This document shows positions 1,546-39,004 of a stretch of DNA of 39,004 bases, in pieces. The stretch spans positions 27,313 through 66,316 of the forward strand of contig CAYUTF010000007.1 of NCBI GenBank assembly GCA_964447495.1. The letters are read 5' to 3'. The notes beneath the pieces are model-generated. The model searched no databases and had not been told where the DNA came from. It saw only the letters and a program-made list of their open reading frames with translations. The DNA is from an uncultured archaeon (GTDB lineage Archaea > Asgardarchaeota > Lokiarchaeia > Sigyniarchaeales > SOKP01). The position numbers and the translations under genes are program-made. Within the stretch, counting starts at the first letter, position 1, and each line of letters starts with the position of its first letter.

Positions 1546-1647
1546 GGTTAGGGATAGTGGTTTGTGGATTGCGTAAGTATGCTCTGAGTTTGGGATTAGA
1601 GCGTATTGGTATTGAGCATGTTCTTGGGGAAGGCATGGAGTTTGGGT

Positions 1648-2157
1648 ATGGACAAAAGGGACGTTCCATCAGAGCCGACTGGAGTGAGGCAGCAAGATAT
1701 TCGGGCATTACATGCACGGATAATGGAGTTGGAGCTTCGCATGAAAGCCGAGTTGGACAGAAAAAAGGACGCAAAAGTTGTAGACCTTGAAGTCGTACAG
1801 CTCAAAGAAGCCGTAAGCAAGCATGAATGCAGCCAGATTACTCGTATAGAGTTGATGTCGTCGAGCATGTCGGCCATTCAGAAGAGTATAAGCAACATCG
1901 AGGGAAGCATTAGCCGATGGAAATCTTTTCGTCTAGGAGGGGTGCTCGCGATCGTTCTAGCGCTGATTTCAGGGGCGACCTATATAATCAGGGCTGAAAC
2001 GAAAGCAGATACAGTTAGCACTTCGGTAAAACGGATTGAAGAAGACGTAGCCGAGATGAGGGAGCAGTTCGACGGGATAACCCCGAAGAGAGAGGCCGAT
2101 GAAGAGACCCTAAACGTTATTCGAAGTACGATAATGGAAGCTCTTTCCGGGAGGTAA
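1648..2157 (+). CDS. Coiled-coil membrane protein with one TM helix (hypothetical)
   Basis: ATG at 1648 follows GGAG at 1637-1640, a better start than 1606. A heptad-rich region, then hydrophobic GGVLAIVLALISGATYII, then a second coiled coil. Confidence 0.6.
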   Translation: MDKRDVPSEPTGVRQQDIRALHARIMELELRMKAELDRKKDAKVVDLEVVQLKEAVSKHECSQITRIELMSSSMSAIQKSISNIEGSISRWKSFRLGGVLAIVLALISGATYIIRAETKADTVSTSVKRIEEDVAEMREQFDGITPKREADEETLNVIRSTIMEALSGR

Positions 2158-2158
2158 C

Positions 2159-2758
2159 GTGGAGACACATGTAAGGCAGGTAGGGGAAGTGGTAGTATCT
2201 CAGTTCCCTATATTTGATGAAGATGGTGTTTCGTATTTATCCGGGGTGCTTCCGAGTTCTTTTGATATTTCACAGTTTCGCAATGACGCCGAGGTTGCGG
2301 TTACAGCTACAGTTTCGGAGATAGGTACCAGCGGGATTTATCAAGTTACGTTCACCCCCACCGATTCGGCGCAGTGGGCTATCGTGGTAAAGCTCCCGAG
2401 TACAGGGGACGTTTGGGGTATGCATGTTACCTCATTCGTTGAAGATTTTAATGGGGTGTCTGAGGCGCAGATGAACGCGGCGTACGATGAGGACACTTCT
2501 ATTCTCTTCCTGGAGATGTGGTTGGATAGGAACGGGGAGACCGTATTTACTGGGTTGGTTTCTGCAAGTGTTGAAGTGTATGACGACTTAGAGAATCTTC
2601 TATTTTCCGGCAGTTCGAGTTCACCTAAAGTCGATGGTCGGTTTAGTGTGTCGAGTGTCGTTTCTTTAGTGGAGAACCGGCCGCACAATGCGGTGGTTTC
2701 TATAACGGATAGTCTGGGGACTGTTGTAACTGGACAGGCTTTCACCACGGTGGGTTAG
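2159..2758 (+). CDS. Putative structural protein, two Ig-like beta-sandwich domains
   Basis: Acidic and beta-rich (VSEIGTSGIYQVTFTP). Tightly coupled to its neighbours in the structural module. Confidence 0.55.
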   Translation: METHVRQVGEVVVSQFPIFDEDGVSYLSGVLPSSFDISQFRNDAEVAVTATVSEIGTSGIYQVTFTPTDSAQWAIVVKLPSTGDVWGMHVTSFVEDFNGVSEAQMNAAYDEDTSILFLEMWLDRNGETVFTGLVSASVEVYDDLENLLFSGSSSSPKVDGRFSVSSVVSLVENRPHNAVVSITDSLGTVVTGQAFTTVG

Positions 2759-2991
2759 TGTTTTTAGTATCGAAAAATAAACGGTCTCAAGTACTGTTTC
2801 GTCGGGGGCTTGAGGGGGACAAGCCACCGGATATTTTCTTTGAGTCGCCACTTAGGGTAACAACAGAAGGTCTGATTATCATGGTTGATTCGCTTAATAC
2901 AGTTGTGGAGTCGGAGTACGGGTGTAAAGTTGTGGATGAATTAACATTATCCCTTGAGAATGAGCCTGTGTTATCTTTGGATTGTGAGTAG
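2758..2991 (+). CDS. Hypothetical protein
   Basis: GTG start overlaps the upstream stop (TAGTG) and the ORF fills the gap exactly. Confidence 0.5.
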   Translation: MFLVSKNKRSQVLFRRGLEGDKPPDIFFESPLRVTTEGLIIMVDSLNTVVESEYGCKVVDELTLSLENEPVLSLDCE

Positions 2992-2999
2992 GAGGGTCT

Positions 3000-3353
3000 A
3001 TGAGTGTTCCTAATGTTTTAAGGGTGGTGAAGAAACGGCATTCTCAAAGGCCATACCTTAGAGTGAGAGTCAGCGGGTCCGATGAGACACCTTTTGATTT
3101 CACTGGTGCCTTGTCGGTCACGTTCACTATGGTCAACAGAGTCAGTGGTATTGAGAAGGTCAATGCAGCCGGAGTTATTGTAAGTCCGGTTACAGAGGGT
3201 TTACTCGAGTATCAGTGGAAGGCTGTTGATGTAGATACCGCAGGAGAATATATTGCGGAGTTTGACGTGGATTATGGGGCTGGGGAAACGATGACACTTC
3301 CCGAAAATGGTAATATTTTGGTTACCATTTTTGAGGATGTAAACGACGAATAG
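3000..3353 (+). CDS. BppU N-terminal-like (baseplate upper protein) domain protein
   Basis: AGGAGG RBS. Pattern DFTGALSVTFTM...GLLEYQW...DTAGEYIAEFDVDY...TLP is typical of this phage Ig-like family. Confidence 0.65.
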   Translation: MSVPNVLRVVKKRHSQRPYLRVRVSGSDETPFDFTGALSVTFTMVNRVSGIEKVNAAGVIVSPVTEGLLEYQWKAVDVDTAGEYIAEFDVDYGAGETMTLPENGNILVTIFEDVNDE

Positions 3354-3361
3354 GTGATATT

Positions 3362-5272
3362 ATGGCTGCAAAAATCAATATCGAAGTTACAGGGTTTCCT
3401 CTAGGCAGTCCGGGTGAAAGTGAAGTTCATCCCTATTCTGTAATCGAAAGTTCTTCTCCTTTGGTCAATCTTTCGCTGACTGATGACACGGGAGTAAACC
3501 AATACTTTTGGTCTTTTGTTTCGAGACCCTTGGGTTCTACGGTGACTATGGTTAACGCCACGTCTCCCATAGCGAGTTTCAACCCGGATATAGGGCTTGC
3601 TGGAACGTATATTGTTCAGTGCTCACTGAATAATGGCGCAACCATTTTGACCAACGGGGTTGCTTTCACGACAGACGTTATGGAAGTTCGAATACCCAGC
3701 GCAAAGGAGACCAAGGAGTTTGATGCATACTCCGGATGGGACCCGGCCTTACAGGATTTCATGCGTAAAGTCGATGTCGGCATAGGGGGTATTGGGGCTA
3801 CGTACTGGGAGCAGTTTGCCGGCAGCCTTATTGGGGGCTCCGGGGTATACCTGAAGCCTGCCTTGGACGAGAGAGTAGCGCTCCCAGCAGGAACTTTTGC
3901 GGGGCCTTCTTTAGTGTTTGGTGGAGATGCCGAGACGGGGTTTTGGTTAAGGAATACCGGGGAGATTGCAGTTACGGTTAATGGGTACCCGGGAATGACT
4001 CTGTATGAAATGTGGGGTGGGCTTTATTTTGAAACCTATGATGTTGAAGACTCATGTTATGAGTTCCATTTGTCACATTATAAAGACTCTTCAGGGGCTC
4101 CAGCTACATTCTATGTAGCAGCTATTGGAACAGATGATAATGCGGGGTCAAGTCTTAATTTATGGAGTGTGGCAGGTTATACCGCTGGAAGTAGTTATGT
4201 TGAGGTAGCTGCATATGATGGAACGGACACACATATTGGTATTAACGCATGGAATAGTACTGGGTATACAGGTTCAGTCTCTATCCTGGCAGTAGCGGAA
4301 GATGTAACAAGCGTTAATGTTCATTCTCGTTGTATGAGTACTGCGTGGTCTTATCTACAGATTACATCCGAGTCAATACATGGAGGAGCATCTCTAGTAT
4401 TGTCGTGCAAGGGTAAAGCTGGGGCTTCCGTGGACGAGGGCAGAATTCAAATAGGAGATAATGCTACAGGTAAAGTTACTTTCTGGAATGCCGATATTTA
4501 TGCGGCTCCATCTTGGCCGGGGGATTATGTTTACCTAATCGATGATTTTACTGAAATGGATGATTATTATAGCGCTTTTGGTGAAGTGTCTATTCTTAAC
4601 GCCATTGTTCAAGCGTCGACGACGGGGTTTAGTGTTTCGGGTTTAACAGAAGACCAAATAGTTTTCGGAGCTCCGAGTGGAGCATTAGACCAGTCTCAGG
4701 ATTTCATGTTAACGGACACCTTAAGATTTAAGGTAGCTGCCGATTCGAGTGTTTCATACGATTATTCAAGCGTGTTCGGTAGGTATGTGAATTCTGAGTT
4801 TTCAGGAGCCCAGTTTGTCGCCTACTCTAGACGGGGCACTGACACAGGTTCTGCTCAAGTTGCGGATAATTTAGTCTTGGTTTGTGAAACCACGGGGGAT
4901 GATACGGCGTCATTCCGATTAGTATCTGGGGGTACCGATAATCCTATAAAGCTTTCAGAAAATAGGGTTATGGCTTTTAAGGTCAAAATAGTATCTTCGG
5001 GGGTAGACACAAGTACAGGTGTTCGTGTTCAAGAGCGTCATGTGCTTTTCTGGAATAGTTCTGTGAATTCTTGGGATTGGGGACCGGCAGCTACAGTTAT
5101 CAACGACAGGTCTACTTGGGTTTCTTCTATTGGAGTTTATATGGGGGGTGTTGACGGAGAGTTTGGATTGTCGATAGAGGTTACTGGAACAAGTGGGAGT
5201 CCGAATATTTTTCACGTAGCTTATGTTACTGAAATGGTCATAGCTCAAACGGCATATAATGCGAGTAGTTAA
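3362..5272 (+). CDS. Tail fibre/spike protein with N-terminal PKD-like domain
   Basis: N-terminal YFWSFVSRPLGS...ASFNPD..GTYIVQ is PKD/Ig-like. Fibre motif GTFAGPSLVFGGDAETGFW. Repetitive beta-strand core. Confidence 0.65.
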   Translation: MAAKINIEVTGFPLGSPGESEVHPYSVIESSSPLVNLSLTDDTGVNQYFWSFVSRPLGSTVTMVNATSPIASFNPDIGLAGTYIVQCSLNNGATILTNGVAFTTDVMEVRIPSAKETKEFDAYSGWDPALQDFMRKVDVGIGGIGATYWEQFAGSLIGGSGVYLKPALDERVALPAGTFAGPSLVFGGDAETGFWLRNTGEIAVTVNGYPGMTLYEMWGGLYFETYDVEDSCYEFHLSHYKDSSGAPATFYVAAIGTDDNAGSSLNLWSVAGYTAGSSYVEVAAYDGTDTHIGINAWNSTGYTGSVSILAVAEDVTSVNVHSRCMSTAWSYLQITSESIHGGASLVLSCKGKAGASVDEGRIQIGDNATGKVTFWNADIYAAPSWPGDYVYLIDDFTEMDDYYSAFGEVSILNAIVQASTTGFSVSGLTEDQIVFGAPSGALDQSQDFMLTDTLRFKVAADSSVSYDYSSVFGRYVNSEFSGAQFVAYSRRGTDTGSAQVADNLVLVCETTGDDTASFRLVSGGTDNPIKLSENRVMAFKVKIVSSGVDTSTGVRVQERHVLFWNSSVNSWDWGPAATVINDRSTWVSSIGVYMGGVDGEFGLSIEVTGTSGSPNIFHVAYVTEMVIAQTAYNASS

Positions 5273-6025
5273 ATGAAAATAGAGAATGCTAAAGTTCGGT
5301 GTATAAATTTGGAACGGTCACATAAGAGGTGGATAGATATTGTCACACTATTCGGTGATAAAGTGATACGGATTGATGCCGTAGACGGGATGCAGTTTGC
5401 TTTAGGTGAGTGGGATCGTATGGGCAAGCCTTGCTGGGCTGAACTCCCTAGCGATGTGACCACAAAGTATTTTGAAATGTACCCTACTACTTATGGTTGT
5501 AATCTTTCTCACATTAAAGCATGGGAGCACTTTTTAAACAGTGACGAAGAGTGGGGAATCTTTGTGGAAGATGACACTATGCCTATTAAGGGTATTTTAT
5601 CGGTAGATATTCCTGACGGCTGTGACTTCTTCTATCTTATCGGGCCAGACCATCCGGGTTATCGTATAGGATTATTCCCCGATGGGCAAGTGCGGTTTGC
5701 CAGGACGTTGGGGGCGTATTTAATGTCTCGTAAAGCTGCTGGGCTGGCTATCCGAGCTATGAATACCCATTATTATCAGGCAGACACACAAGTTCCGATT
5801 AGACTCTTTGACTCTATGAAGCACCATAAAATAAAAGCGCCGAATTGGGCGGAGTTGCCCAGGATAAAAGCCTATGGGCCTACGGAGTCTATAGTTGGTC
5901 ATTCTGAGCATGCAGAGTTGTCAACGTTCACGATTGACGGCAAAAAGAATTGGATACCAGATGAGCTAAAGAGTATAAAGTATACCAGTCATCAAAGGAG
6001 GCATCATGACAGTAGTTACAAATAA
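5273..6025 (+). CDS. Glycosyltransferase family 25
   Basis: CINLERSHKRW, RIDAVDG, GCNLSHIKAW, FVEDD and AYLMSRKAA are the GT25 signature motifs, in order. Confidence 0.85.
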   Translation: MKIENAKVRCINLERSHKRWIDIVTLFGDKVIRIDAVDGMQFALGEWDRMGKPCWAELPSDVTTKYFEMYPTTYGCNLSHIKAWEHFLNSDEEWGIFVEDDTMPIKGILSVDIPDGCDFFYLIGPDHPGYRIGLFPDGQVRFARTLGAYLMSRKAAGLAIRAMNTHYYQADTQVPIRLFDSMKHHKIKAPNWAELPRIKAYGPTESIVGHSEHAELSTFTIDGKKNWIPDELKSIKYTSHQRRHHDSSYK

Positions 6026-6533
6026 TCAATTGGCCGTAGTTAGCGCAGTGTTCGATAAGCTCGGAAACACAACAGATGAGGTTTCGCGGTGGGAGTTTGC
6101 AGTTAGGATTTGTAAATTTAAACCATTCGTTGATGCATTAAACGAAGCCAGAAAACCCTCTGATGGGGCAAAGAGATTCCAGGATAGAGTCCAAGGTCTG
6201 GTTATGAAGCACGGATTTGTCGTGGAAGAAGTTAATGGGTTCCGTAGGTATGAAATCCCCGAGGAGGAAAAGGGGACATTTGCACGGGAGCAGGAGAATC
6301 TCCGAGTAGAGTACGCATCGGAGTTTCAGGAGTTTGTTAAGCATCAGAACAATTTGCGGGTGCTAGGGGATAAAGAAATAGAGTTGGACATAGAGCCGAT
6401 AAAGTATGAATGGTGTGATAACCTGATTAATGCTAAGGAGGTCGCTTTCCTTATGGGATTGGGGCTGATAACGGCCAGTGTTCAAGAAGACGTTAAAAAT
6501 GTACCCAACGTTATGCGCAAGGTAGGAGGTTGA
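6006..6533 (+). CDS. Hypothetical helical protein (possible tail-fibre chaperone)
   Basis: AAGGAGG RBS. Acidic and helical, located after the fibre gene. Confidence 0.5.
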   Translation: MTVVTNNQLAVVSAVFDKLGNTTDEVSRWEFAVRICKFKPFVDALNEARKPSDGAKRFQDRVQGLVMKHGFVVEEVNGFRRYEIPEEEKGTFAREQENLRVEYASEFQEFVKHQNNLRVLGDKEIELDIEPIKYEWCDNLINAKEVAFLMGLGLITASVQEDVKNVPNVMRKVGG

Positions 6534-6534
6534 A

Positions 6535-7770
6535 TTGCTCGGATGGGGCATTCAGTATTGGGGCCTAGATTATTGGGGTGGGATAGGGCCTACTTTAGAT
6601 GAAGGATTCGGAGAATTCCAGTTTAGGGTGGTTGCTATGTCCCAAGGGTACACCATAAAGGTTACTCTAACCACTCCGGATGCGGCTGATAGCCCACAGT
6701 GGTCGCGAAGGTTTATGATTCTTCGCAAGAGCAACGAATGGCCGCAGGCGGTCGATGATACGAATGTCTTTGTCATTTCCGATGTGGTTGATTTGGGGTC
6801 TACTGAATATTCGTTTTTGGATCCGGATTTGGTTGCGGGCAAGGATTATTACTATCGGCTGTTTCTTTTGGGCACCGATGGGATTTGGTATTCAAGTCGA
6901 GCTGAAATGGATTCGGCTTACCCGTATGAGCGGTGGGGGAGTACGAAGTCGATGTACATGAGCCTTCCTAGGGGATGGAGGTCTCATGATGAAACCCAAG
7001 ACTTGTACAACTTCGTTGATATGTTCGGCGCGGTTGCGGACAATCTCAAGACCGATTGTGAGTACTTAAAAACTCTGTTCTCTATTTACGAAGTTCATGA
7101 AGATTTACTTCCGATAGCTGACAGCAAGATTGGGTGGCCTACCTGGATCCAAGCCGGCGGGGTTCATAAAAGGCGAGACTCGGCGAATGCCGTTGATACG
7201 TATAAGCGGTTAGGCACGGAGTATGGATACAGCCAGCTTTTTGCGTCTGTTACAGATTGGGAGTTCACTCTCACTTCAGGGTGGAGGTACCTTTTTTGGT
7301 CGAACAGTGCTTACAGCACCACTCCGGATTTAACTAATCCGGATTTATTGGCCGATGTGGGTGGAGTTGGTGACCTACTTCGGTATACGAATGACCCATC
7401 CCGATGGCAGTCGATTACTGGGTTGGGGTTTTATTTGACTGAGATCCCAGGGGTTACCGGTCCGTTCACTCAAGAGATGTGGGATAGGATTCTATTTCTC
7501 ATCGAGTGGGGGAAAGCCTCGTACGTAGTGTATGAGGTCCGGATTGTCCCGATATCGGAAGAAGAGTATCTAGCGGACTGGGTCATAGACGAAGCTTTGG
7601 AACCCCTCATTGCGTTTATCGAGCGTAGTGTGAGCGCTGAGCTGGACGAAGAGGATGCCCCGTATTCCCCTGATTTACTTGTGTTCACATCGAACACCGC
7701 GGTGTGCATAACGAACACGGATTATAGTCGGGTATGGCACAGCTATTTAAGCTTTGATTTTCCACCATAG
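6535..7770 (+). CDS. Baseplate wedge / tail protein (P2 gpI-like) with N-terminal FN3-like region
   Basis: AGGAGG RBS with TTG start. WGIQYWGLDYWG N-terminus, FN3-like DPDLVAGKDYYYRLF, and gpI-like LPRGWRSHD...LLPIADSKIGW...YKRLGT. Confidence 0.6.
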   Translation: MLGWGIQYWGLDYWGGIGPTLDEGFGEFQFRVVAMSQGYTIKVTLTTPDAADSPQWSRRFMILRKSNEWPQAVDDTNVFVISDVVDLGSTEYSFLDPDLVAGKDYYYRLFLLGTDGIWYSSRAEMDSAYPYERWGSTKSMYMSLPRGWRSHDETQDLYNFVDMFGAVADNLKTDCEYLKTLFSIYEVHEDLLPIADSKIGWPTWIQAGGVHKRRDSANAVDTYKRLGTEYGYSQLFASVTDWEFTLTSGWRYLFWSNSAYSTTPDLTNPDLLADVGGVGDLLRYTNDPSRWQSITGLGFYLTEIPGVTGPFTQEMWDRILFLIEWGKASYVVYEVRIVPISEEEYLADWVIDEALEPLIAFIERSVSAELDEEDAPYSPDLLVFTSNTAVCITNTDYSRVWHSYLSFDFPP

Positions 7771-7791
7771 AGGATTGAAAAAGAGGTTGTA

Positions 7792-8316
7792 ATGAAAATT
7801 GTAGGGCGATGGCAGGATGTTTATCGGTATTCAAACGGGCTGGTCACCCCGGGGAGAGCCGGAGAGTTTGTCTGGGGGTTTAACCAGATACAGAATTCTT
7901 TTCGGACGTTGTTGGCTTGTTGGGCGCGAGAAGAGTCGGGGTACGGACGTATAGGGTTTATGGGGATTGGTACTGGGTTACCTGGTTGGGACACTACCCC
8001 GCCGGTTCAGAGCTATGACCAAGCCATCCTAGAAGCTGAATATTATCGGTTGACGATTCCCCAAGGGGAAATCATTTTTATCGATCCGAGTACTGGGTCC
8101 CCAGCAGGGAGTCCCACCAATAAGTTAGAGATCACCGTTATCATCGGGTATTCAGCGGCCAACGGCACCATGCGGGAATTCGGTCTGTTCGGGGGAACGG
8201 CCACTTCCACGGTGGATACCGGCGAAATGGTCAATTGGATTGTGCATGACCGGATCGATAAAACATCAGGTTTTGAAATTCAACGAAAAGTCAGAATTGA
8301 GTTTGTTACCCAGTAG
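7792..8316 (+). CDS. Baseplate / tail-fibre attachment protein
   Basis: Motifs MGIGTG, ANGTMREFGLFGG and IDKTSGFEIQRKVRIEF match tail-collar/fibre N-terminal-type proteins. Confidence 0.65.
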   Translation: MKIVGRWQDVYRYSNGLVTPGRAGEFVWGFNQIQNSFRTLLACWAREESGYGRIGFMGIGTGLPGWDTTPPVQSYDQAILEAEYYRLTIPQGEIIFIDPSTGSPAGSPTNKLEITVIIGYSAANGTMREFGLFGGTATSTVDTGEMVNWIVHDRIDKTSGFEIQRKVRIEFVTQ

Positions 8317-8327
8317 GAGGAGGCAGA

Positions 8328-10202
8328 ATGCCAGGCAACGTTCCAAACATAAGTGACGATACTTTCAACTTTATCAAGGAGTATGCAAAAGTCGTACTTC
8401 AACAAGGCGTTCCTATTACCGATGCGGATTGGAATGAGCTACAGGACATTATTCGTTTGCGAGAAATCAGGCAGAATATTGTAGCTCTTGGGAACTGCCG
8501 GCTGGCCGCTGGGGCGTCGAGCGATACTCCGGGCTTTGTGATCACAGGTACCGGGGCTTCGAACAACTTCACCATTTCCGGAGGGCTTGCTTGTGCTGAC
8601 GGGGTTATTGTGCCTTCTCAGCATGGGGTCAGTGAGCCTGGAGACATTGAGTATGATTCTTCTGATAACTATATGATGGAGGGTACGGTTTCCTCAGTCG
8701 GAGGGGGCAATATAGTCGATGAGCACACGTTCTATTCGTCTTTTATGAATGTGGTGAATTGTCGAATTCGAATGACTTCAGGGACTGAGAGCGGCAATGA
8801 TTTCGTCATATCGGTGTTGGTTAATTCAACCACCCTGACCCTGAGTGGAGGTACTGGCACAATAGCCCCAGGCGATACGTATCTTATGTTACCTCCGGAG
8901 CTTACAACCCCAGGCACTGTCCGGGTTGACCAAGTGTATATCCAGGCATGGTTTGACGACATAAATGCCGAAGAAGATACCGATTTGTTGAATCCTGCTT
9001 TGGGATTGGAGCCATCGCATCGTAGTAAGCTGAGGTCGTGTGTTCGGGTTGCAGAAGGAGGGGTCTCTCCGAGCACTCCTGACCCCTATTCAACGGGAGT
9101 TCGTTATCTGAATATTGGGTATATTGAGCGCAATGTTTCGGATCTCATCCTCCCGTGGTTTTGTTTCCCTGCGGGTGCCTCCCAGGTTAAGTCGGGGTTG
9201 GGGGGAACTGACTTCTACACCACTTTACCCATGTTAGTTTGGCGGAATATGGGAAGGAAAAGCGATGCGGAGGTGGACAGTGCTACCTTCAGTATTTACC
9301 AATGGCAAGACAGGTTCATCCTAGTGAGGGGTGGGTATCTTGAGGCTGATGGACATGTCTTTGTAGGCACAAGTACAACGTATCCTGTTTGGTTCGACAC
9401 CGATGGGTTTGTAAAGTATGGGTCGGACAACACTCCGGGAGCTGATTTAGGCCAGGCGTATCTAGATGATAGTACGTGGGATTCGGAAACTCAGTTTGCT
9501 TCCTCCGGACCGATTTTTAAGGGGGGTGAAATCGCCGTTCACAATACCCTAGCCCTTAAGGAGGGTTCTTTTCTCCAGCTAGAGGATGACGCGCATCTTT
9601 TGGGTGACCCCACTGTGTTGGGGGCTAACCCCATGAAGATGTTTGGTGTGGATGCAGGGCATTATTCCCAGATACATTATAATGATAGCGAGATCTGGTG
9701 GACATTGAACACCACCTATGATCGGGCTACGGGGGAGTTCACTTCAGTTGCCCCGATTTCGGCGAGCTTTCTTGTCCGGTTTATTGATGGGGGTTTTCGT
9801 CTAATGTACCATGCTTTTTCATATACTGCGTGGACAATAGGTGAATGGACAAATGAAGTAATTGTTGACCCCTTGATGGTACATGCGAAAGATTTCAATC
9901 TTACCAGGGAGTTGCAGACCTATATTGTGGGTCAAGAAAGGGTCTTTTCGCGCAGGATGGGGTTTTTAGCGGTGAGGCTGCATCATACCATGCAGGGTAA
10001 GCATGTGGCTTTGTTTCGGACTGAAGAAAATGATGCCTTGTTTGAGATGATAAGCGGAAACAGTGGGTATTTTTCGATTAATGAAAACGAAGCGGGGCGC
10101 GTAAATGTTTATCCTGAAGGTTCAGACCAGGTAAGGATTCAGAATAAGCTGACACAGCAAGTGGATATAGGGTATGGTTACATAGACATGACGGGTGTCT
10201 AG
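8328..10202 (+). CDS. Tail fibre with N-terminal DUF6519/DUF4815-like domain
   Basis: Strong AGGAGGAGG RBS. N-terminal DTFNFIKEYAKVVLQQGVPITDADWNELQDI matches the 'V.xQQG....DADWNE' baseplate-attachment motif of contractile systems. Confidence 0.7.
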   Translation: MPGNVPNISDDTFNFIKEYAKVVLQQGVPITDADWNELQDIIRLREIRQNIVALGNCRLAAGASSDTPGFVITGTGASNNFTISGGLACADGVIVPSQHGVSEPGDIEYDSSDNYMMEGTVSSVGGGNIVDEHTFYSSFMNVVNCRIRMTSGTESGNDFVISVLVNSTTLTLSGGTGTIAPGDTYLMLPPELTTPGTVRVDQVYIQAWFDDINAEEDTDLLNPALGLEPSHRSKLRSCVRVAEGGVSPSTPDPYSTGVRYLNIGYIERNVSDLILPWFCFPAGASQVKSGLGGTDFYTTLPMLVWRNMGRKSDAEVDSATFSIYQWQDRFILVRGGYLEADGHVFVGTSTTYPVWFDTDGFVKYGSDNTPGADLGQAYLDDSTWDSETQFASSGPIFKGGEIAVHNTLALKEGSFLQLEDDAHLLGDPTVLGANPMKMFGVDAGHYSQIHYNDSEIWWTLNTTYDRATGEFTSVAPISASFLVRFIDGGFRLMYHAFSYTAWTIGEWTNEVIVDPLMVHAKDFNLTRELQTYIVGQERVFSRRMGFLAVRLHHTMQGKHVALFRTEENDALFEMISGNSGYFSINENEAGRVNVYPEGSDQVRIQNKLTQQVDIGYGYIDMTGV

Positions 10203-10248
10203 GCCAAAAGCTGTTGCCCCGGGCTAACGGGGTGTAAGGAGGAAATGC

Positions 10249-10779
10249 ATGGCCAGTACAATGAGTAAAAGGGACATTCTTGCAGTGTCTGCCAGTGGTA
10301 TAGCTACCAGAAAGCTTCATCAGTGGTTGCAGGATGCCCGAAACGACATGGTGAATTTAGCGGCGGGAGCCACTATATATCACCAGGGAATCGATGACGG
10401 AGCATTGGAGGGCCGTGCAGACGCGGCCGTAACTCTTGCTTCGGCACTCGAGTTGGCGAATTCTTTGCGTCGGAAGATCGTGGCGCATTTTGTCTCCACC
10501 GGTCAAGCGGGAGCGCATGCAATCGCAGACGCAGTGAATGCTATCGCGGCGCCGGCGGCGACAGACCTTGCGACGGGTCTAACGTTGGTGAATGAGTTGG
10601 CGACGGATTTTGATGCGCATTTGAGTCAGCCAAATGTGCATCTTAATGATGACGGCATCAACGCGGTTGGTGGGGCTGATGCGACAGACCTTGCGACGTT
10701 GATCACGAGAGTAAATTTAGTCAAAGCTAAATACAACCTCCATACGGCGGCGGCTTTGACCTCAGCGTATGTTCTGTAG
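10249..10779 (+). CDS. Ala-rich protein with three ~41-aa His-containing repeats (possible decoration/fibre protein)
   Basis: AAGGAGG RBS. Repeats AVTLASALELANSL..IVAH / ATDLATGLTLVNEL..FDAH / ATDLATLITRVNLV..YNLH. Confidence 0.6.
   Translation: MASTMSKRDILAVSASGIATRKLHQWLQDARNDMVNLAAGATIYHQGIDDGALEGRADAAVTLASALELANSLRRKIVAHFVSTGQAGAHAIADAVNAIAAPAATDLATGLTLVNELATDFDAHLSQPNVHLNDDGINAVGGADATDLATLITRVNLVKAKYNLHTAAALTSAYVL
10558..10698 (+). repeat. 18-bp exact direct repeat GCGACAGACCTTGCGACG (two copies, 123 bp apart)
   Basis: Copies at 10558-10575 and 10681-10698, both encoding ATDLAT. Confidence 0.9.
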
Positions 10780-10788
10780 GAGGAGCAA

Positions 10789-11178
10789 ATGAGCGTATTA
10801 AAAGTTGGTTACAATGTTTTTGCAGGGGCCTCTCAAGCCGGAACGAATTCCGGAACCCCCGGGGTGGTTCAGGCAGAGGTTAATCAGAGCAAAGCGTATT
10901 TCATGAAGATTACAGAGCTGCCTGGCGGTACATACTGGAACAACACCACAAAAGCGTTCCAGGGAGGAGCCCCGGCACAGGCGGATGAAATCCAGATCCA
11001 GGGGTCCTGTCCCTATTCGGGGTCTCCGAACACCATCCGGCGGCTTTCCGACCGTATTCCCTACGAAGCGCTCGCGGGAATTGGTGTTGGCGGCTGCACT
11101 CTCACCATATATGCCGATGGGGATGACCCAGCGACAGAAGGTGTGTCGATTACGCTTGCATACAAGCCGGATGCATAG
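10789..11178 (+). CDS. Hypothetical (probable structural) protein
   Basis: AGGAGGAG RBS. Gly/Thr-rich beta protein directly upstream of the terminator. Confidence 0.65.
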   Translation: MSVLKVGYNVFAGASQAGTNSGTPGVVQAEVNQSKAYFMKITELPGGTYWNNTTKAFQGGAPAQADEIQIQGSCPYSGSPNTIRRLSDRIPYEALAGIGVGGCTLTIYADGDDPATEGVSITLAYKPDA

Positions 11179-24488: not shown

Positions 24489-25226
24489 ATGTATGAAAAT
24501 ATAAAGGTGTTCGGGGAGAGGCATACTGGCACAAAGTATCTGTTGAAGTTGATAGAGTTGAATATGCCAGAGTTTAATATAGTTCAGGGTACTGGGTCAT
24601 GGGTTCTTGAAAAGTTGTATTATAGGCCGTGGGTGGAGTTGGCCTATGATATGTATTTTAGGAAGACATTCCCTACAGTGTTGGGATGGAAGCATTCAGC
24701 TGTTCATTGTGGGGCTCTGTATGAGCAGAAGATTTTTGAAAAGACGTTTTTTGTTTGTTTAGTCAGAAATCCCTATTCTTGGTTGTTGTCAATGCACAGG
24801 ATGCCTTATCATGCTTATGATATGCCCAGGAGTTTAGAGGATTTCTTGACGAGTGAGTGGCCTATATTGGATAGGGATATGTGCAGAGCCAAGAACGTTA
24901 TGGACCTATGGAACATTAAGAATTATTCTTACTTGCATTCTGGTTTTTATTTAATAAAGTTTGAAGATTTAGTTTGTAATCCACGCAAGACTATTTACAA
25001 GCTGGCGAAAAGGTTGGAGTCGGATTTCAGGTACTCTCAGTTTGAGGGGTATAATAGATCTACGGTACAAGACATGTGTCGGGATTCTGACTGGTACAAG
25101 GATTATTACGGTTCAGAAAGGTGGCGTCACAGATTATCTCCAAGGGCATTGGAGATAATAGCCAAGGGTATTGATTGGGGTATAGCACACGAGTTCAGTT
25201 ATATGGAGAGGCCATGTTTTCATTAG
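24489..25226 (+). CDS. Sulfotransferase-fold protein
   Basis: 5'-PSB-like GERHTGTKYL, GWKH, 3'-PB-like VRNPYSWLLS, and IKFEDLV. Confidence 0.75.
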   Translation: MYENIKVFGERHTGTKYLLKLIELNMPEFNIVQGTGSWVLEKLYYRPWVELAYDMYFRKTFPTVLGWKHSAVHCGALYEQKIFEKTFFVCLVRNPYSWLLSMHRMPYHAYDMPRSLEDFLTSEWPILDRDMCRAKNVMDLWNIKNYSYLHSGFYLIKFEDLVCNPRKTIYKLAKRLESDFRYSQFEGYNRSTVQDMCRDSDWYKDYYGSERWRHRLSPRALEIIAKGIDWGIAHEFSYMERPCFH

Positions 25227-35415: not shown

Positions 35416-35724
35416 ATGAAAACACAGAAGACGGAGTTGGTGGCGGAGGTTGGAGAGAGGTCAGAAGTTCTATTCAGAGTGGCCGGCGGGTCTCAAGTTA
35501 AGCTGGTAGCTGGGGCAATAAGTAGGTCTATTCGGGAAGGGAATACTCCGGTCATTGTGGCCATAGGGGCAGGAGCTGTAAATCAGGCATTAAAGGCAAT
35601 ATGTGTATCTCAGGGCATGATAGCCCCGGAGGGCTATTCTATTGTCATTAAGCCGGGATTTAGAGACGAGTTCATCAGTGGCAGAAAATGTACTGCTATG
35701 TCGATGAAGGTAGTTTCTATTTAG
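35416..35724 (+). CDS. spoVS: Stage V sporulation protein S family
   Basis: FRVAGGS.VKLVAGAI...REG...AIGAGAVNQALKAI...G...PGF is the SpoVS signature. Confidence 0.9.
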   Translation: MKTQKTELVAEVGERSEVLFRVAGGSQVKLVAGAISRSIREGNTPVIVAIGAGAVNQALKAICVSQGMIAPEGYSIVIKPGFRDEFISGRKCTAMSMKVVSI

Positions 35725-35732
35725 CTGGAGGA

Positions 35733-36179
35733 ATGATGAATAAAGTTGTTAAGGAAATAACGTTTGACGCCGCACACAGGTTATTTGGGTACCAGGGAAA
35801 GTGTGCCAATATCCATGGGCACAGGTATAGAGTTTTGGTGGCGCTCAATTATAAAGAAGTCAGGGACGATGGTCTATCTGTAGACTTCAGCAGGATAAGA
35901 GATAGCGTGGGGAAGTGGATCTCTGAGAATTGGGATCACAAGTTACTTCTAAGCTCGAATGACCCGCTAGGGAGGCATTTAGTTGACTCGAATATGTGCA
36001 CTGAGAGTTCTATTTTCAGTTTTGAGAAGAATCCTACAGCTGAAGTTTTGGCGGAATATTTAGTCAGTGTTGTGATTCCATATCAGTGGCCATACCTTGG
36101 GCACATTTTACATTCAGTTTCGGTATATGAAACTCCAACATGTTTTACAGTAGTTACGGTTCCCCATGTACCAGATTAA
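35733..36179 (+). CDS. queD: 6-carboxytetrahydropterin synthase
   Basis: FDAAHRL..Y.GKCANIHGHRY, VDF, WDH, NPTAE and VYETPT. ATG at 35733 follows GGAGG. Confidence 0.93.
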   Translation: MMNKVVKEITFDAAHRLFGYQGKCANIHGHRYRVLVALNYKEVRDDGLSVDFSRIRDSVGKWISENWDHKLLLSSNDPLGRHLVDSNMCTESSIFSFEKNPTAEVLAEYLVSVVIPYQWPYLGHILHSVSVYETPTCFTVVTVPHVPD

Positions 36180-36843
36180 TGAGATTTTTTACAGTATTCA
36201 GGGTGAGGGGGTCAGTATTGGTTATCCAGCAATATTTGTCAGGTTCTCAGGGTGTAATTTAGCTTGTCCCTTCTGCGATACTGAGCATGATACATTTACT
36301 GAGTATTCATTAGACAATTTAGTGTCGGCTATAGTCTCATTGAGGGCTAAGTTGGGTATGCGCCAAGGGTATGGACTTTTTCCCAAAGACAGGCCAAGGT
36401 GTATTTTCACCGGTGGGGAGCCAATGCTTCAGTTAGATGTGAATCTTATTGGGGCACTTAGGGAAGCTGGGTTTCTACTGTGCATAGAGACCAATGGTAC
36501 GATAGGGGAGCAGTGGCTGATATCCTTGGATGAAGTTACAGTTTCGCCTAAGAGACCCATCAATGAGTTGCCGGCATTAAGGTACGCGACGACGATTAAA
36601 GTCTTGGTTCCAGTTTTTGAGGGTATAGAGGTATCAAGTATAGTGGAAATGGTAAATATCAGTGCTGTAAGAAGGCGGAATATTAATCTGGTATTACAGC
36701 CAATAAGCGTAGAAGATGGAGCTTCGAGGCAGTTTAGAAACAATTGTCAGGAAGCTGTCGGGTTACAGAAAAGATTGTGGGTTCGACATGGACAGGTATG
36801 GAGAGTAATCCCCCAGGTGCATCGCTCTATGGGGTTAATTTAG
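36166..36843 (+). CDS. queE: 7-carboxy-7-deazaguanine synthase (radical SAM)
   Basis: EIFYSIQGEG, FVRFSGCNLACPFCDT, TGGEP, IETNG, VSPK, LQP and PQVH. Confidence 0.95.
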   Translation: MYQINEIFYSIQGEGVSIGYPAIFVRFSGCNLACPFCDTEHDTFTEYSLDNLVSAIVSLRAKLGMRQGYGLFPKDRPRCIFTGGEPMLQLDVNLIGALREAGFLLCIETNGTIGEQWLISLDEVTVSPKRPINELPALRYATTIKVLVPVFEGIEVSSIVEMVNISAVRRRNINLVLQPISVEDGASRQFRNNCQEAVGLQKRLWVRHGQVWRVIPQVHRSMGLI

Positions 36844-36855
36844 GAGGTCTTGAGA

Positions 36856-37227
36856 ATGAATGAGTACAGAGAAGGTAATACGGAAGCGGAAGACGGAGTT
36901 GAAGATTCTTTTGAGGATGCTGCAACCGGGGAGAAAGTCTCGGCCCCCTCGGCAATATCCGCAATATTGTTGGTATTAACCCCCCGGGGTGTTGAGTTGA
37001 TGACGGACATTAAGGGGATAAAGGTTGATAGGCAGGCAACATATCACGATGTGGTTATGATGACATCGGTAGCAAAAGCAGAAGCTGAGGCCACCATCTC
37101 CAGCAGGTACACTGCGGATGCTATGCTAAAGGGTATGAGGTCTGTCCAAAAGGCGGCCTCCGGCAGAAAAGCTCCAAGAAATGTTGGTGGAGTCCCTATC
37201 ATTGGAGGGGGACGGCGTGACCACTGA
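36856..37227 (+). CDS. Hypothetical protein within the deazaguanine cluster
   Basis: AGGAGG at 36843-36848, ATG at 36856. Acidic N-terminus, basic C-terminus. Confidence 0.65.
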   Translation: MNEYREGNTEAEDGVEDSFEDAATGEKVSAPSAISAILLVLTPRGVELMTDIKGIKVDRQATYHDVVMMTSVAKAEAEATISSRYTADAMLKGMRSVQKAASGRKAPRNVGGVPIIGGGRRDH

Positions 37228-37783
37228 AATACAGCGGGAGATGGAGGAGGCTGTAAAAGTTCTTCTTCGAGGTATGGGTGAAGACATTAGCCGAGAGGGG
37301 TTGGTGGATACCCCTAGACGTGTAGTCAGTATGTTCTTGGAGATGACTGAGGGTTTGAGGGTGTCGCCCCCTCATATGACAACGTTTAGTAAGGGGTCTA
37401 CTGACCAAATGGTAATAGTCTCTGATATTGCGTACACGAGTTTGTGTGAGCATCATCTAGCGCCATTTACCGGTAGAGTTCACATTGGATACCTTCCTAG
37501 AGGTCGGCTGGCCGGGCTATCGAAGTTGGGTAGAATTGTTGAGTGGTATGCAAAAAGGCTTCAAATTCAGGAGAGGTTTACATCACAGATAGCGGATAAG
37601 TGTGTTGATGAGCTGGATCCGGTGGGGATTATCGTAGTCGCAGAAGGGCACCATCAGTGTATGTCCATGAGGGGCATCAAAAAAGAAAATCATAAAACTG
37701 TGACTACGGCAATCAGGGGGTTGATAGCTAAGAACGAGTTCTTTCAGGCTTTGGGGGTTACCCGTGGCCACAATAGTTTGTGA
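37217..37783 (+). CDS. folE: GTP cyclohydrolase I
   Basis: REGLVDTPRRV, SLCEHHLAPF, GLSKLGR, RLQIQER and HQCMSMRG. GTG at 37217 follows GGAGG. Confidence 0.95.
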   Translation: MTTEIQREMEEAVKVLLRGMGEDISREGLVDTPRRVVSMFLEMTEGLRVSPPHMTTFSKGSTDQMVIVSDIAYTSLCEHHLAPFTGRVHIGYLPRGRLAGLSKLGRIVEWYAKRLQIQERFTSQIADKCVDELDPVGIIVVAEGHHQCMSMRGIKKENHKTVTTAIRGLIAKNEFFQALGVTRGHNSL

Positions 37784-38096
37784 TCTGGATGGGGTCATCG
37801 CGAAGCTGGTTTCGAGTCATACTGAGTATTCCCAGTGCGAGCCTAACCAAGAAGTCATAGGAGTCTTGCATAGGCTTGTAGGTTTGGGTCATGAGGTTGT
37901 GATTCATACAGCAAGGTGGGAAGTAGATAGAAGCGTTACTGAGTCTTGGCTTAGGAGGAATTCAGTACCATATTCTAAAGTGGTGTTCGATAAGCCATTA
38001 GGTCAGGTGTATATCGATGATAGGGCTTTATTGTATAGCTCTAATGACGAGACCAGGGGTAGTTTATTAGAAGAGATTCTAGGGAGGCTAAGATGA
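37764..38096 (+). CDS. Cap-less HAD phosphatase (EcbF/BcbF-like)
   Basis: Intact motifs DLDGVI, HTAR, KP and YIDDRA. Confidence 0.85.
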   Translation: MATIVCDLDGVIAKLVSSHTEYSQCEPNQEVIGVLHRLVGLGHEVVIHTARWEVDRSVTESWLRRNSVPYSKVVFDKPLGQVYIDDRALLYSSNDETRGSLLEEILGRLR

Positions 38097-38821
38097 GTCC
38101 TGAAGTTCTGGGTGATTTACATATTATTTTGTACAGTGGTGGTATGGATTCGTATATTACTTATAAGTATGTTGGGCGAATTTCGGGTGAGAATGATATA
38201 GTCTATCCAGTTTATTTTAGCCTTGGGCACAGATACGAGCATCAGGAGCTGGCGGCAGTTGCGAATACTTTGGGAAGCAAAGTTATGCGGGATTATTCAC
38301 TTAAAGGATTGGGTAAAATTGAAGACCTCTTTGCGTATATTCCGGGGAGGAATGCGCATTTAGTTCTGGCTTCTCTGAAGTATGCCGTTGTTAAGGCTGG
38401 AAAGGTCTTTATTTGGCTTACGGTTCAGAAAGATGAGATGAGTATTCCGGACAGGAGTGATGAGTTTTTTGAGAAGATGTCAGAGGTTTGTAGTGTGTTG
38501 GTTGGTTCTGAGGTTCTTGTGGTAACTCCGTTTAGGGATATGGATAAGGCAGATATGGTATCTTGGTATTTGTCTAAAGGATATTCAGTTGCTGAGTTGT
38601 TGAGTACTTGGGCATGTTATGACTCTACTTCGTATATTCCGTGCGGCGAGTGCAGCGCATGTATCCGGAGATACATTGCTCTGAGCATCAATGATTTAAG
38701 TGAGGAGTACCGAGTCGACCCGTTGAGTTCGAGTTTAGCAGATAGTTATAGAAAAGCGGCAAAGTTGGGGGAGTACAGTGAGCAACGTTGTGAAAGAATT
38801 CTGGAGGTGTTAGGTGAGTGA
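38093..38821 (+). CDS. queC: 7-cyano-7-deazaguanine synthase (QueC-like)
   Basis: LYSGGMDS, YIPGRN, PDRS, TPF..DKAD and Zn site TWACY..CGECSACIRR. Confidence 0.88.
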   Translation: MSPEVLGDLHIILYSGGMDSYITYKYVGRISGENDIVYPVYFSLGHRYEHQELAAVANTLGSKVMRDYSLKGLGKIEDLFAYIPGRNAHLVLASLKYAVVKAGKVFIWLTVQKDEMSIPDRSDEFFEKMSEVCSVLVGSEVLVVTPFRDMDKADMVSWYLSKGYSVAELLSTWACYDSTSYIPCGECSACIRRYIALSINDLSEEYRVDPLSSSLADSYRKAAKLGEYSEQRCERILEVLGE

Positions 38822-39004
38822 GTTAAAAGACTGCATGGTGTTGAAGGCTGAGTGGCTTATAACTAGAGAGTGCAATTTGCGGTGTGAATATTGCCAAATT
38901 AGGAATAAGCCAGAAGGCATGTCTGAAATCTCTACAGAGAGGGCTATAGAGATTGTAGAGATGTTTTCTAACTTGTGGCCAGGGGCGCCGATGGTGATTT
39001 ATGG
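38814..39004 (+). CDS. Radical SAM protein, 3'-truncated (absent from the ORF track)
   Basis: Hand translation from GTG 38814 (GGAGG at 38803-38807): VSELKDCMVLKAEWLITRECNLRCEYCQIRN...APMVIYG. CxxxCxxC at 38871-38894; the frame is open to the window end. Confidence 0.85.
   Translation, partial: MSELKDCMVLKAEWLITRECNLRCEYCQIRNKPEGMSEISTERAIEIVEMFSNLWPGAPMVIY

Follow-up and report, generated by a model that had tools for sequence, protein, structure and literature searches.

A candidate phage operon for a sugar-bearing 7-deazaguanine in DNA

The window analyzed here, a stretch of 39,004 nucleotides binned with an uncultured archaeon of the Lokiarchaeia (contig CAYUTF010000007.1 of assembly GCA_964447495.1, hereafter C7; C7:27313-66316), ends where C7 itself ends and closes with a gene cluster for 7-deazaguanine synthesis. 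Seven open reading frames (ORFs) occupy the + strand at 35733-39004: queD, queE, an orphan ORF, folE, a gene for a HAD phosphatase, a QueC-family gene, and the start of a gene for a second radical S-adenosylmethionine (SAM) enzyme, rSAM2. The original prediction described these ORFs as overlapping or near-adjacent, and their junctions agree, with overlaps of 14, 47, 20, 4, and 8 nt and a single 6-nt gap between queE and the orphan ORF. At the level of sequence and predicted fold, the complete operon combines a full pathway to 7-carboxy-7-deazaguanine (CDG) with a divergent ATPase of the QueC family, a small HAD, a twitch-type radical SAM enzyme, soluble glycosyltransferases, and a transglycosylase of the tRNA-guanine transglycosylase (TGT) fold. 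On a modest balance of probability, this phage operon makes a new, probably sugar-bearing, 7-deazaguanine and installs it in phage DNA.

Three genes provide the predicted route to CDG. The queD gene (35733..36179, +), for a 6-carboxytetrahydropterin synthase, matches PF01242 (1.2e-25) and phrog_2389 (5e-33). Its ORF opens at 35688, with the ATG at 35733 as the likely start, and its CxxxHGH motif reads C-A-N-I-H-G-H. It is the sole PTPS-family gene in all five related complete genomes. The queE gene (36166..36843, +) encodes a putative CDG synthase of the radical SAM type with the motif CNLACPFC (CxxxCxxC), an assignment made at the PHROG and Pfam level only (phrog_2076, 4.8e-30; PF04055, 3.5e-08), its best NCBIfam matches all being QueE models below cut-off (97 vs. 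240 bits). The folE gene (37181..37783, +), for GTP cyclohydrolase I, matches PF01227 at 1.2e-62, and its orthologue at L015 (compared loci carry L-numbers, and G001 and G002 are complete related genomes) reaches 222 bits with NF006826, above the cut-off of 162. Between queE and folE lies the orphan ORF (36850..37227, +), which is 125 aa long from a TTG and 123 aa from an ATG. It has no match in Pfam, PHROG, NCBIfam, or PADLOC, and its best Atlas score (0.84) gave no usable lead. A conserved M..YREG at the N terminus is joined by an acidic linker to a small C-terminal domain, and positional homologues with 21-28% identity stand between queE and folE in L015 and L103-L106.

The HAD gene (37764..38096, +) encodes a small capless HAD-IIIA-type protein of 110 aa that matches phrog_1238 (1.2e-16) and TIGR01689 (5.6e-10) and, weakly, PNKP phosphatase. 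Among 12 sequences from different lineages, its motifs D7-x-D9-G, R51, K77, and D85 do not vary and T49 is at least 90% conserved, as befits a competent small phosphatase. The 4-nt overlap with the following gene indicates translational coupling to a QueC-like PP-loop ATPase (QueCL; 38093..38821, +). QueCL retains the SGGMDS PP-loop and the Cys175/184/187/190 site, both invariant in the alignment. The last gene is cut by the contig end, so that the window holds only the N-terminal 63 codons of rSAM2 (38814..39004, +; PF04055, 2.5e-05; CNLRCEYC).

Immediately upstream of queD is a gene for a SpoVS-like small protein (35416..35724, +; PF04232, 5.8e-20). A SpoVS homologue occupies the same position in L015, L016, L103-L106, L024, L025, and L029. 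It is a syntenic neighbor of the operon, not a demonstrated member of the pathway.

The operon continues beyond C7. No sequence overlap was found between the end of C7 and other contigs. L023, an independent metagenome contig, matches the last 2495 bases of C7 with 99.9% identity and the first 1443 bases of reverse-complemented contig C77 with 99.7% identity; between these parts are 250 bases that are missing from the assembly. Because L023 bridges both contig ends, the continuation from C7 onto C77 is proven. The first open frame of reverse-complemented C77 is 212 aa long and has SPASM-like cysteines; after it come two GT2 genes and then ORFs of 307 and 517 aa. Two IMG/VR genomes of about 91% DNA identity (110,050 and 109,495 bp, the second with terminal repeats) confirm the intact gene order, queD-queE-orf124-folE-HAD-QueC-like-rSAM2 (359 aa)-GT2 (288)-GT2 (260)-orf306-DpdA-like (517)-orf140, with junctions of at most 11 nt. 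The series rSAM2-GT2-GT2-orf306-DpdA, with gaps or overlaps of at most 11 nt, is found in L015 and L016. The operon thus spans about 10 kb from queD to dpdA, of which the window holds the front half, and the que cluster stands among replication genes. General PHROG, Pfam, and NCBIfam scans recognized no transporter or regulator gene in the operon.

The original prediction allowed that a DpdA transglycosylase could lie downstream, and one is found on C77. The 517-aa protein matches phrog_887, "queuine tRNA-ribosyltransferase", at 3.3e-49; no match was found in Pfam, NCBIfam, PADLOC, or PDB sequences (phmmer), and a Pfam TGT scan of the assembly returned two host genes only, missing the phage protein. 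By tblastn, 34 of 50,697 phage records match it, four of them over at least 80% of the query; the best are 22-28% identical, and some are annotated as DpdA-like. Identity to any cultured-phage protein does not exceed 28%. In a library of 5.8 billion proteins, 47 reach E ≤1e-5, and 43 of these are relatives with 37-70% identity, several encoded on contigs of about 100-115 kb. An AlphaFold2 model built from 44 sequences (mean predicted local distance difference test [pLDDT] score 79.7) has only tRNA-guanine transglycosylases among its 50 best PDB matches listed (Foldseek E about 1e-6, probability 1.00). DSGGF, YSVDSTTW, and a C-terminal four-Cys cluster are conserved in the family. The protein is accepted, on sequence and modeled fold, as a long-form DpdA-like enzyme. 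In a related 113-kb phage, the DpdA-like gene (L105:15531-18467) extends to 979 aa due to an intein with a LAGLIDADG endonuclease.

The source of the window is, judged by gene content, a tailed phage of about 110 kb, because it carries replication genes and tail-type proteins, with its large ORFs on one strand. C7 has a G+C content of 46.4%, against 31.3% for the whole assembly, all its large ORFs lie on one strand, and its GC skew is strongly positive. Three further contigs, C77, C91, and C169, share this composition and skew, and the four together have 44-48% G+C, a skew of 0.1-0.44 per kb, and genes on one strand. Among the proteins encoded are a helicase (DnaB-like), a loader (DnaC-like), a Toprim primase, a family A polymerase, a bacterial-type RecA, an ATP-dependent ligase, ParB, and tail-type proteins. 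A search for spacer-like links between the bin and the phage contigs gave a single 20-nt match only. The phage contigs probably entered the archaeal bin by mis-binning, given the G+C difference (44-48% vs. 31%), the bacterial-type RecA, DnaB, DnaC, and PolA, and the lack of a spacer-like match. The only phage tRNA gene is a tRNA-Ser(CGA) on C77 (L006) at 4829-4924, and none belongs to the Asp/Asn/His/Tyr family. Near it, at 5371-7024, lie a 243-bp direct repeat of 90% identity and shorter repeats. A large family of paralogues lies on the minus strand of C91 (L008) at 18-10990, where no fewer than 11 small genes in a row encode a RyR (ryanodine-receptor repeat) domain. A GT25-like gene stands beside tail genes at 5273-6025 of the window, and two weak sulfotransferase-like genes are at window 24489-25226 and L006:3685-4491. 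Between 0.34 and 1.00 of the words sampled from 35733-39004 occur in four salt marsh metagenome runs, one of which may be the source, leaving three from other studies.

The genes beyond the window are the most telling additions to the cluster, namely the glycosyltransferases. GT2a and GT2b of this phage have DxD motifs and no hydrophobic segment, and the glycosyltransferase genes are translationally coupled between rSAM2 and dpdA. The neighboring orf306/307 is possibly a third glycosyltransferase. The same layout recurs in four further IMG/VR phages of 97-113 kb, whose rSAM2 proteins are 44-48% identical; all but one of them have the QueC-like gene. The genes between rSAM2 and DpdA differ in each: GT2 and GT4 in L103; two GT2 and a GT25 in L104; GT2, an ORF of unknown type, GT2, and GT4 in L105; and GT2, a polysaccharide deacetylase, GT2, GT1, and GT4 in L106. 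Thus, in five related phages with complete or near-complete genomes, a single position is occupied by a variable cassette of GT2, GT4, GT25, GT1, and polysaccharide deacetylase genes, a pattern that looks like arms-race diversification. Elsewhere, glycosyltransferases accompany the QueC-like clade in L029, which has the HAD and no detected rSAM2, and in L083. Other lineages with the QueC-like, HAD, and rSAM2 genes carry a short-chain dehydrogenase (L026, L028, L032) or methyltransferases (L017, L028, L032), and in one protein, P0007, rSAM2 is fused to a methyltransferase.

QueC-like, HAD, and rSAM2 genes travel together. Their association was surveyed in a metagenome scan for QueC-like genes, using the best 80 of 283 relatives. 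Neighbors were labeled by phmmer with queries from this analysis after dropping duplicates (L016, L023, L033, L037, and L038); since the rSAM2 and HAD queries derive from the same lineages, very distant versions could be missed. Among 22 close QueC-like loci (at least 105 bits), 18 have the HAD, 14 rSAM2, and 15 DpdA nearby, and where at least 2.5 kb of sequence is available on both sides (n = 11) all three are present in every case. The 60 more distant QueC-type loci have the HAD in 3, rSAM2 in none, and DpdA in 11; with the same flanks (n = 23), the counts are 1, 0, and 8. HAD and rSAM2 are therefore both present at 11 of 11 well-flanked loci of the QueC-like clade and at 0 of 23 loci of other QueC types. 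For rSAM2 with close QueC-like loci, the Fisher test gives p = 3.5e-9, uncorrected for shared descent. A single label change, on a branch with a Shimodaira-Hasegawa-like approximate likelihood ratio test (SH-aLRT) value of 98, accounts for all 18 rows of the QueC tree that have HAD or rSAM2 nearby, and none of 500 label shuffles equaled this. The gene order itself differs among lineages: rSAM2-QueC-like-HAD-DpdA in L041, DpdA-rSAM2-rSAM2-HAD-QueC-like in L043, HAD-rSAM2-GT1-QueC-like-DpdA in L083, and another arrangement in the L017 type. The original prediction would have failed had the radical SAM and HAD genes not co-occurred with que genes in relatives; they do, including in lineages of different gene order.

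The gene first labeled queC belongs to the QueC family (PF06508, 7.2e-22), as claimed, but not to canonical QueC. QueCL scores 62.4 bits against TIGR00364 (cut-off 150.3) and 41.6 against NF008317 (cut-off 378). A 65-sequence tree places canonical QueC, represented by Dp-1, a Queuovirinae vibriophage, Motura, and the host gene, together with Gat-QueC on one side and all QueC-like proteins on the other (SH-aLRT 96), with a sample biased by loci fished with QueC-like motifs. The QueCL clade has the motifs LGHRY..E and VQKDEMSIPDR, where canonical QueC instead has YGQ[KR]H..E and D.SGYPDC. By these sequence criteria it is a divergent QueC-family paralogue, which may not make preQ0 at all. It is the sole QueC homologue in the complete genomes (one in G001; two matches in one frame in G002, counted as one gene) and is not Gat-fused in either. 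Another phage lineage (L017, L018, L027, L028, L032) carries the QueC-like gene and a full Gat-QueC in one cluster, which argues that QueCL acts other than, or beyond, preQ0 synthesis. Invariant H46, Y48, and E52 of QueCL fall in the region that matches the amine-binding Tyr41, His45, and Glu48 of RoyL, a resemblance that is only suggestive. A pattern scan of 185,579 prokaryote genomes with the QueC-like profile found no relative, and the same profile run on viral contigs returned four loci and nothing further.

Two phage lineages with QueC-like genes have distinct surroundings. In L017:12760-16501 and in L018, the que cluster contains a ThyS-like gene, HNH endonucleases, and a family A polymerase with a fused uracil-DNA glycosylase domain. 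Such polymerase fusions have reportedly been seen in phages with T-modified genomes, and the L017 and L018 phages may modify both G and T. A role for QueC-like, HAD, and rSAM2 in thymidine hypermodification was rejected for the ~100-kb family, where there is no ThyS homologue. Cultured Menderavirus phages, represented by Stenotrophomonas phage YB07 (L021, MK580972.1 38090-43613), have folE, myo-inositol-1-phosphate synthase, an ORF of 123 aa, a QueC-like gene that shares 29% identity with QueCL, an ORF of 403 aa, and a gene of 297 aa with the annotation QueE-like radical SAM; this last gene has no Pfam match, and neither queD nor DpdA was recognized nearby. This gene set may belong to a different, cyclitol-linked pathway.

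The whole rSAM2 is 359 aa long in its intact L015 orthologue. C20, C24, and C27 of its CxxxCxxC motif are invariant in 29 sequences, as are five more cysteines (157, 249, 266, 299, and 302) that include a C-x11-G-x4-C hairpin and a CxxC, a pattern that fits a twitch or partial SPASM domain. The best fold match of its AlphaFold2 model (pLDDT 91.7) is BlsE (1.1e-8), with PqqE, MoaA, GDGT-MAS, SuiB, CteB, viperin-like enzymes, SkfB, DesII, and AbmM close behind. Thus, rSAM2 looks like a small-molecule or sugar/nucleoside editor, although the model is not decisive. It is below the cut-off of every curated NCBIfam family. Two cultured-phage records match it, both with 32% coverage, and none over most of its length; a pattern scan of the same 185,579 prokaryote genomes found no relative, and 137 cluster representatives reach E ≤1e-30 in 1.84 billion proteins.

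Enzymes of the known tailoring routes were sought in the five related complete genomes. The original prediction noted that QueF and ArcS were not recognizable in the window, and this extends to whole genomes, with only a sub-threshold QueF match inside folE and no ArcS core (DUF5591). A second PTPS gene and a thymidylate-synthase homologue (PF00303) are likewise missing from all five. Gat-QueC and DpdL are also absent from the related complete genomes, in a search that did not include DpdM and DpdN. TET/JBP (PF12851) was found in none of the five, in a search whose control was blank too. No alternative acceptor pathway is apparent, because these genomes have no thymidylate-synthase homologue, QueF, ArcS core, second PTPS, or second QueC.

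The product of the operon would be a 7-deazaguanine that is placed in DNA and then decorated, most likely with sugar, with QueCL, HAD, and rSAM2 building the handle. Going by their established family functions, FolE, QueD, and QueE would convert GTP to CDG. QueCL would then activate the CDG carboxylate and may proceed to an amide or nitrile. Slightly favored, by analogy with the coupling of CDG to lysine by RoyL, is that QueCL couples CDG to an amine-bearing, phosphorylated co-substrate. The coupled HAD could strip the phosphate to expose a hydroxyl, and the twitch-type radical SAM enzyme could edit the side chain or sugar. The long-form DpdA-like transglycosylase would swap guanine in DNA for the deazaguanine base, and the soluble glycosyltransferases encoded between rSAM2 and dpdA may add one or more sugars. 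The expected benefit is that phage DNA is shielded from host nucleases. A specific structure can be put forward tentatively, at somewhat less than even confidence: a base in virion DNA whose C7 carboxyl is amide-linked to a hydroxyl-bearing handle that is unmasked by the HAD, edited by rSAM2, and extended by the glycosyltransferases to a mono- or oligosaccharide. The amide-handle route, with QueCL as a RoyL-like ligase, is favored as a conjecture because no QueF supplies an amine, and because the major groove accommodates a substituent at C7, whereas huimycin-type chemistry at N2 and O6 would disturb pairing. The proposal of a new base-modification pathway thus gains from the co-occurrence, the downstream DpdA, and the lack of QueF, ArcS, Gat-QueC, and DpdL; its second part, radical tailoring of preQ0 or CDG, does not. 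The fold matches of rSAM2 are generic, with a lean toward nucleoside and sugar editors.

The operon could instead be an ordinary 7-deazaguanine system in which QueCL is a working QueC or 7-amido-7-deazaguanine (ADG) synthase and the base in DNA is dPreQ0, dADG, or dCDG, while HAD, rSAM2, and the glycosyltransferases do other jobs in nucleotide or DNA-end metabolism or in glycosylation of the virion or host surface. A number of observations weigh against a sugar-bearing base, and several of them point to such a system. Sister clades within the wider QueC-like superclade sit in sets that look like plain DpdA-QueC-QueD-QueE-FolE, so QueCL may simply make preQ0. HADs of phrog_1238 occur in phages without annotated que genes (0 of 20 records so annotated), BlsE, PqqE, MoaA, SuiB, and viperin fall within one log of each other as fold matches of rSAM2, and the phage has other carbohydrate genes, the GT25-like and sulfotransferase-like ones, elsewhere. 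The likeness of orf306/307 to GT-B enzymes comes from language-model features alone (score 0.96), with no Pfam match and only two relatives in 5.8 billion proteins. In the ~100-kb phage family, upstream genes (an exonuclease, a 154-aa ORF, and SpoVS) are collinear too, and since this family-wide collinearity includes unrelated genes, within-family synteny is weak evidence. The 104-kb phage L103 (L103:9519-11062) has no QueC-like gene and encodes rSAM2 in two separate frames of 258 and 113 aa, which could be decay or an assembly error; it retains glycosyltransferases and DpdA, so both can persist without the QueC-like gene and an intact rSAM2. Conversely, L017-type lineages have the QueC-like, HAD, and rSAM2 genes without recognized glycosyltransferases, so the two modules are separable. 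The weight of the case for a sugar-bearing base therefore rests on the shuffled lineages and the variable cassette. Against an ordinary system, QueC-like, HAD, and rSAM2 stay united through order changes in separate lineages (11/11 vs. 0/23), and Gat-QueC beside the QueC-like gene in the L017 type argues against simple redundancy. The glycosyltransferases have no membrane segments and are coupled between rSAM2 and dpdA, which is exactly where the cassette varies, and the methyltransferase-rSAM2 fusion of P0007 points the same way. An ordinary system is unlikely on this evidence, although it deserves real weight.

The TGT-fold enzyme might also act on tRNA or another RNA, giving a queuosine-like, possibly glycosylated, base that reprograms translation. 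The modeled fold is compatible with DNA or tRNA as the target, its best structural matches are all tRNA-guanine transglycosylases, and the DpdA profile aligned to the host TGT by hhalign falls short of significance (E 0.057); these points, too, temper the DNA-modification reading. Glycosylated queuosines exist in eukaryotic tRNA. However, phage relatives of the enzyme are annotated DpdA-like, the cluster stands among replication genes, one orthologue carries an intein, and the single phage tRNA gene is a Ser(CGA), outside the Asp/Asn/His/Tyr family. Furthermore, in the accessible text of Cui 2023 (PMC10516641), the 7-deazaguanine-bearing phages studied all encode DpdA, and in those analyzed by mass spectrometry the base is in DNA. 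An RNA target is thus improbable. It is a shade more improbable still that the operon makes a glycosylated 7-deazapurine as a free metabolite, in the manner of huimycin or dapiramicin, for host takeover or competition, with the DpdA-like gene acting independently. Actinomycete clusters do join preQ0 genes, a methyltransferase, and a glycosyltransferase, but the accessible text of the preprint that describes them defines secondary-metabolite clusters by the absence of dpdA (bioRxiv 10.64898/2026.04.15.718813), which here is present at 11 of 11 well-flanked loci, and the operon has no recognized transporter or regulator gene.

A sugar-bearing 7-deazaguanine, the reading preferred here, would be a new chemical class in phage DNA. 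The C7 groups of the eight 7-deazaguanine derivatives known so far are all small. To our knowledge, no glycosylated purine has been described in DNA, and the natural glycosylated DNA bases that we know of, like those in the literature searched, are pyrimidines or base J. If true, the pathway would show how a glycosylation handle on a purine is created by a QueC-family enzyme together with a HAD and a radical SAM enzyme, would offer new enzymes for site-specific DNA labeling, and would point to blind spots of restriction, CRISPR, and glycosylase defenses as well as to new targets for them. In a literature search, no paper described a 7-deazaguanine with a sugar in DNA or linked such a radical SAM or HAD to DpdA, supplementary tables apart; these (e.g., Supplementary Data S1, Cui 2023) might list related clusters.

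The closest known systems are those that place 7-deazaguanines in phage DNA, in which FolE, QueD, and QueE genes likewise cluster with a TGT-fold transglycosylase among replication genes (PMC6884629; PMC10516641). The accessible text of Cui 2023 (PMC10516641) describes DpdA as inserting 7-deazaguanine bases into DNA and as encoded by every such phage studied, and it lists eight derivatives (dPreQ0, dADG, dG+, dPreQ1, mdPreQ1, fdPreQ1, dDG, and dCDG) with the enzymes DpdA1-4, QueC*, DpdL, DpdM, and DpdN, none of them with sugars, a HAD, or a second radical SAM. The words "radical" and "glycosyl" do not occur in the accessible text of Hutinet 2019 (PMC6884629). In contrast, the operon described here has a QueC homologue in a separate clade and a 517-aa DpdA with a Cys4 C-terminal extension, whose closest cultured-phage matches are 22-28% identical. 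In place of QueF, ArcS, Gat-QueC, and DpdL, none of which is present, it encodes from two to five carbohydrate enzymes along with a HAD and a twitch radical SAM.

The glycosyltransferases recall hydroxymethylpyrimidine glycosylation (T4 alpha/beta-GT), where soluble GT-A and GT-B genes lie near base-modifying genes in sets that vary between relatives. Phage GT-A and GT-B cassettes beside base-modifying enzymes glycosylate 5-hydroxymethylcytosine, hypermodifying DNA with glycans, and neither "guanine" nor "deazaguanine" occurs in the accessible part of that preprint (bioRxiv 10.1101/2023.12.21.572611). Here, the sole modified-base pathway is that of a purine, and the five complete genomes have no thymidylate-synthase homologue.

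For the role proposed for rSAM2, sugar and nucleoside radical SAM enzymes (BlsE 7vob, MoaA 1tv7, DesII 8hzv, AbmM 8wm2, and viperins) are among its best fold matches (E 1e-8 to 1e-6), although identity is 13-19% and the peptide maturases PqqE, SuiB, CteB, and SkfB match equally well. In archaeosine synthesis by ArcS and RaSEA, a radical SAM enzyme finishes the 7-deazaguanine side chain. The route proposed here is similar in that a conjugate first arises at the C7 substituent and a radical SAM enzyme acts on it afterward, although the five complete phage genomes have no ArcS core domain.

Huimycin and dapiramicin share with the phage lineages a 7-deazapurine core and both methyltransferase and glycosyltransferase decoration. 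For huimycin, the accessible text describes HuiC as methylating and HuiG as glycosylating preQ0 (bioRxiv 10.64898/2026.04.15.718813). Unlike the proposed base, huimycin exists as a free metabolite whose exocyclic N2 is glycosylated following O6-methylation, chemistry that would disturb pairing in DNA. In the same source, RoyL, from roseomycin A biosynthesis, is a QueC homologue that forms CDG-amino-acid amides. RoyL belongs to actinomycete secondary metabolism without DpdA, and it is likened to QueCL here by description, not by sequence. As a QueC-family enzyme that acts on adenylated CDG with no preQ0 made, it provides the precedent for the role proposed for QueCL.

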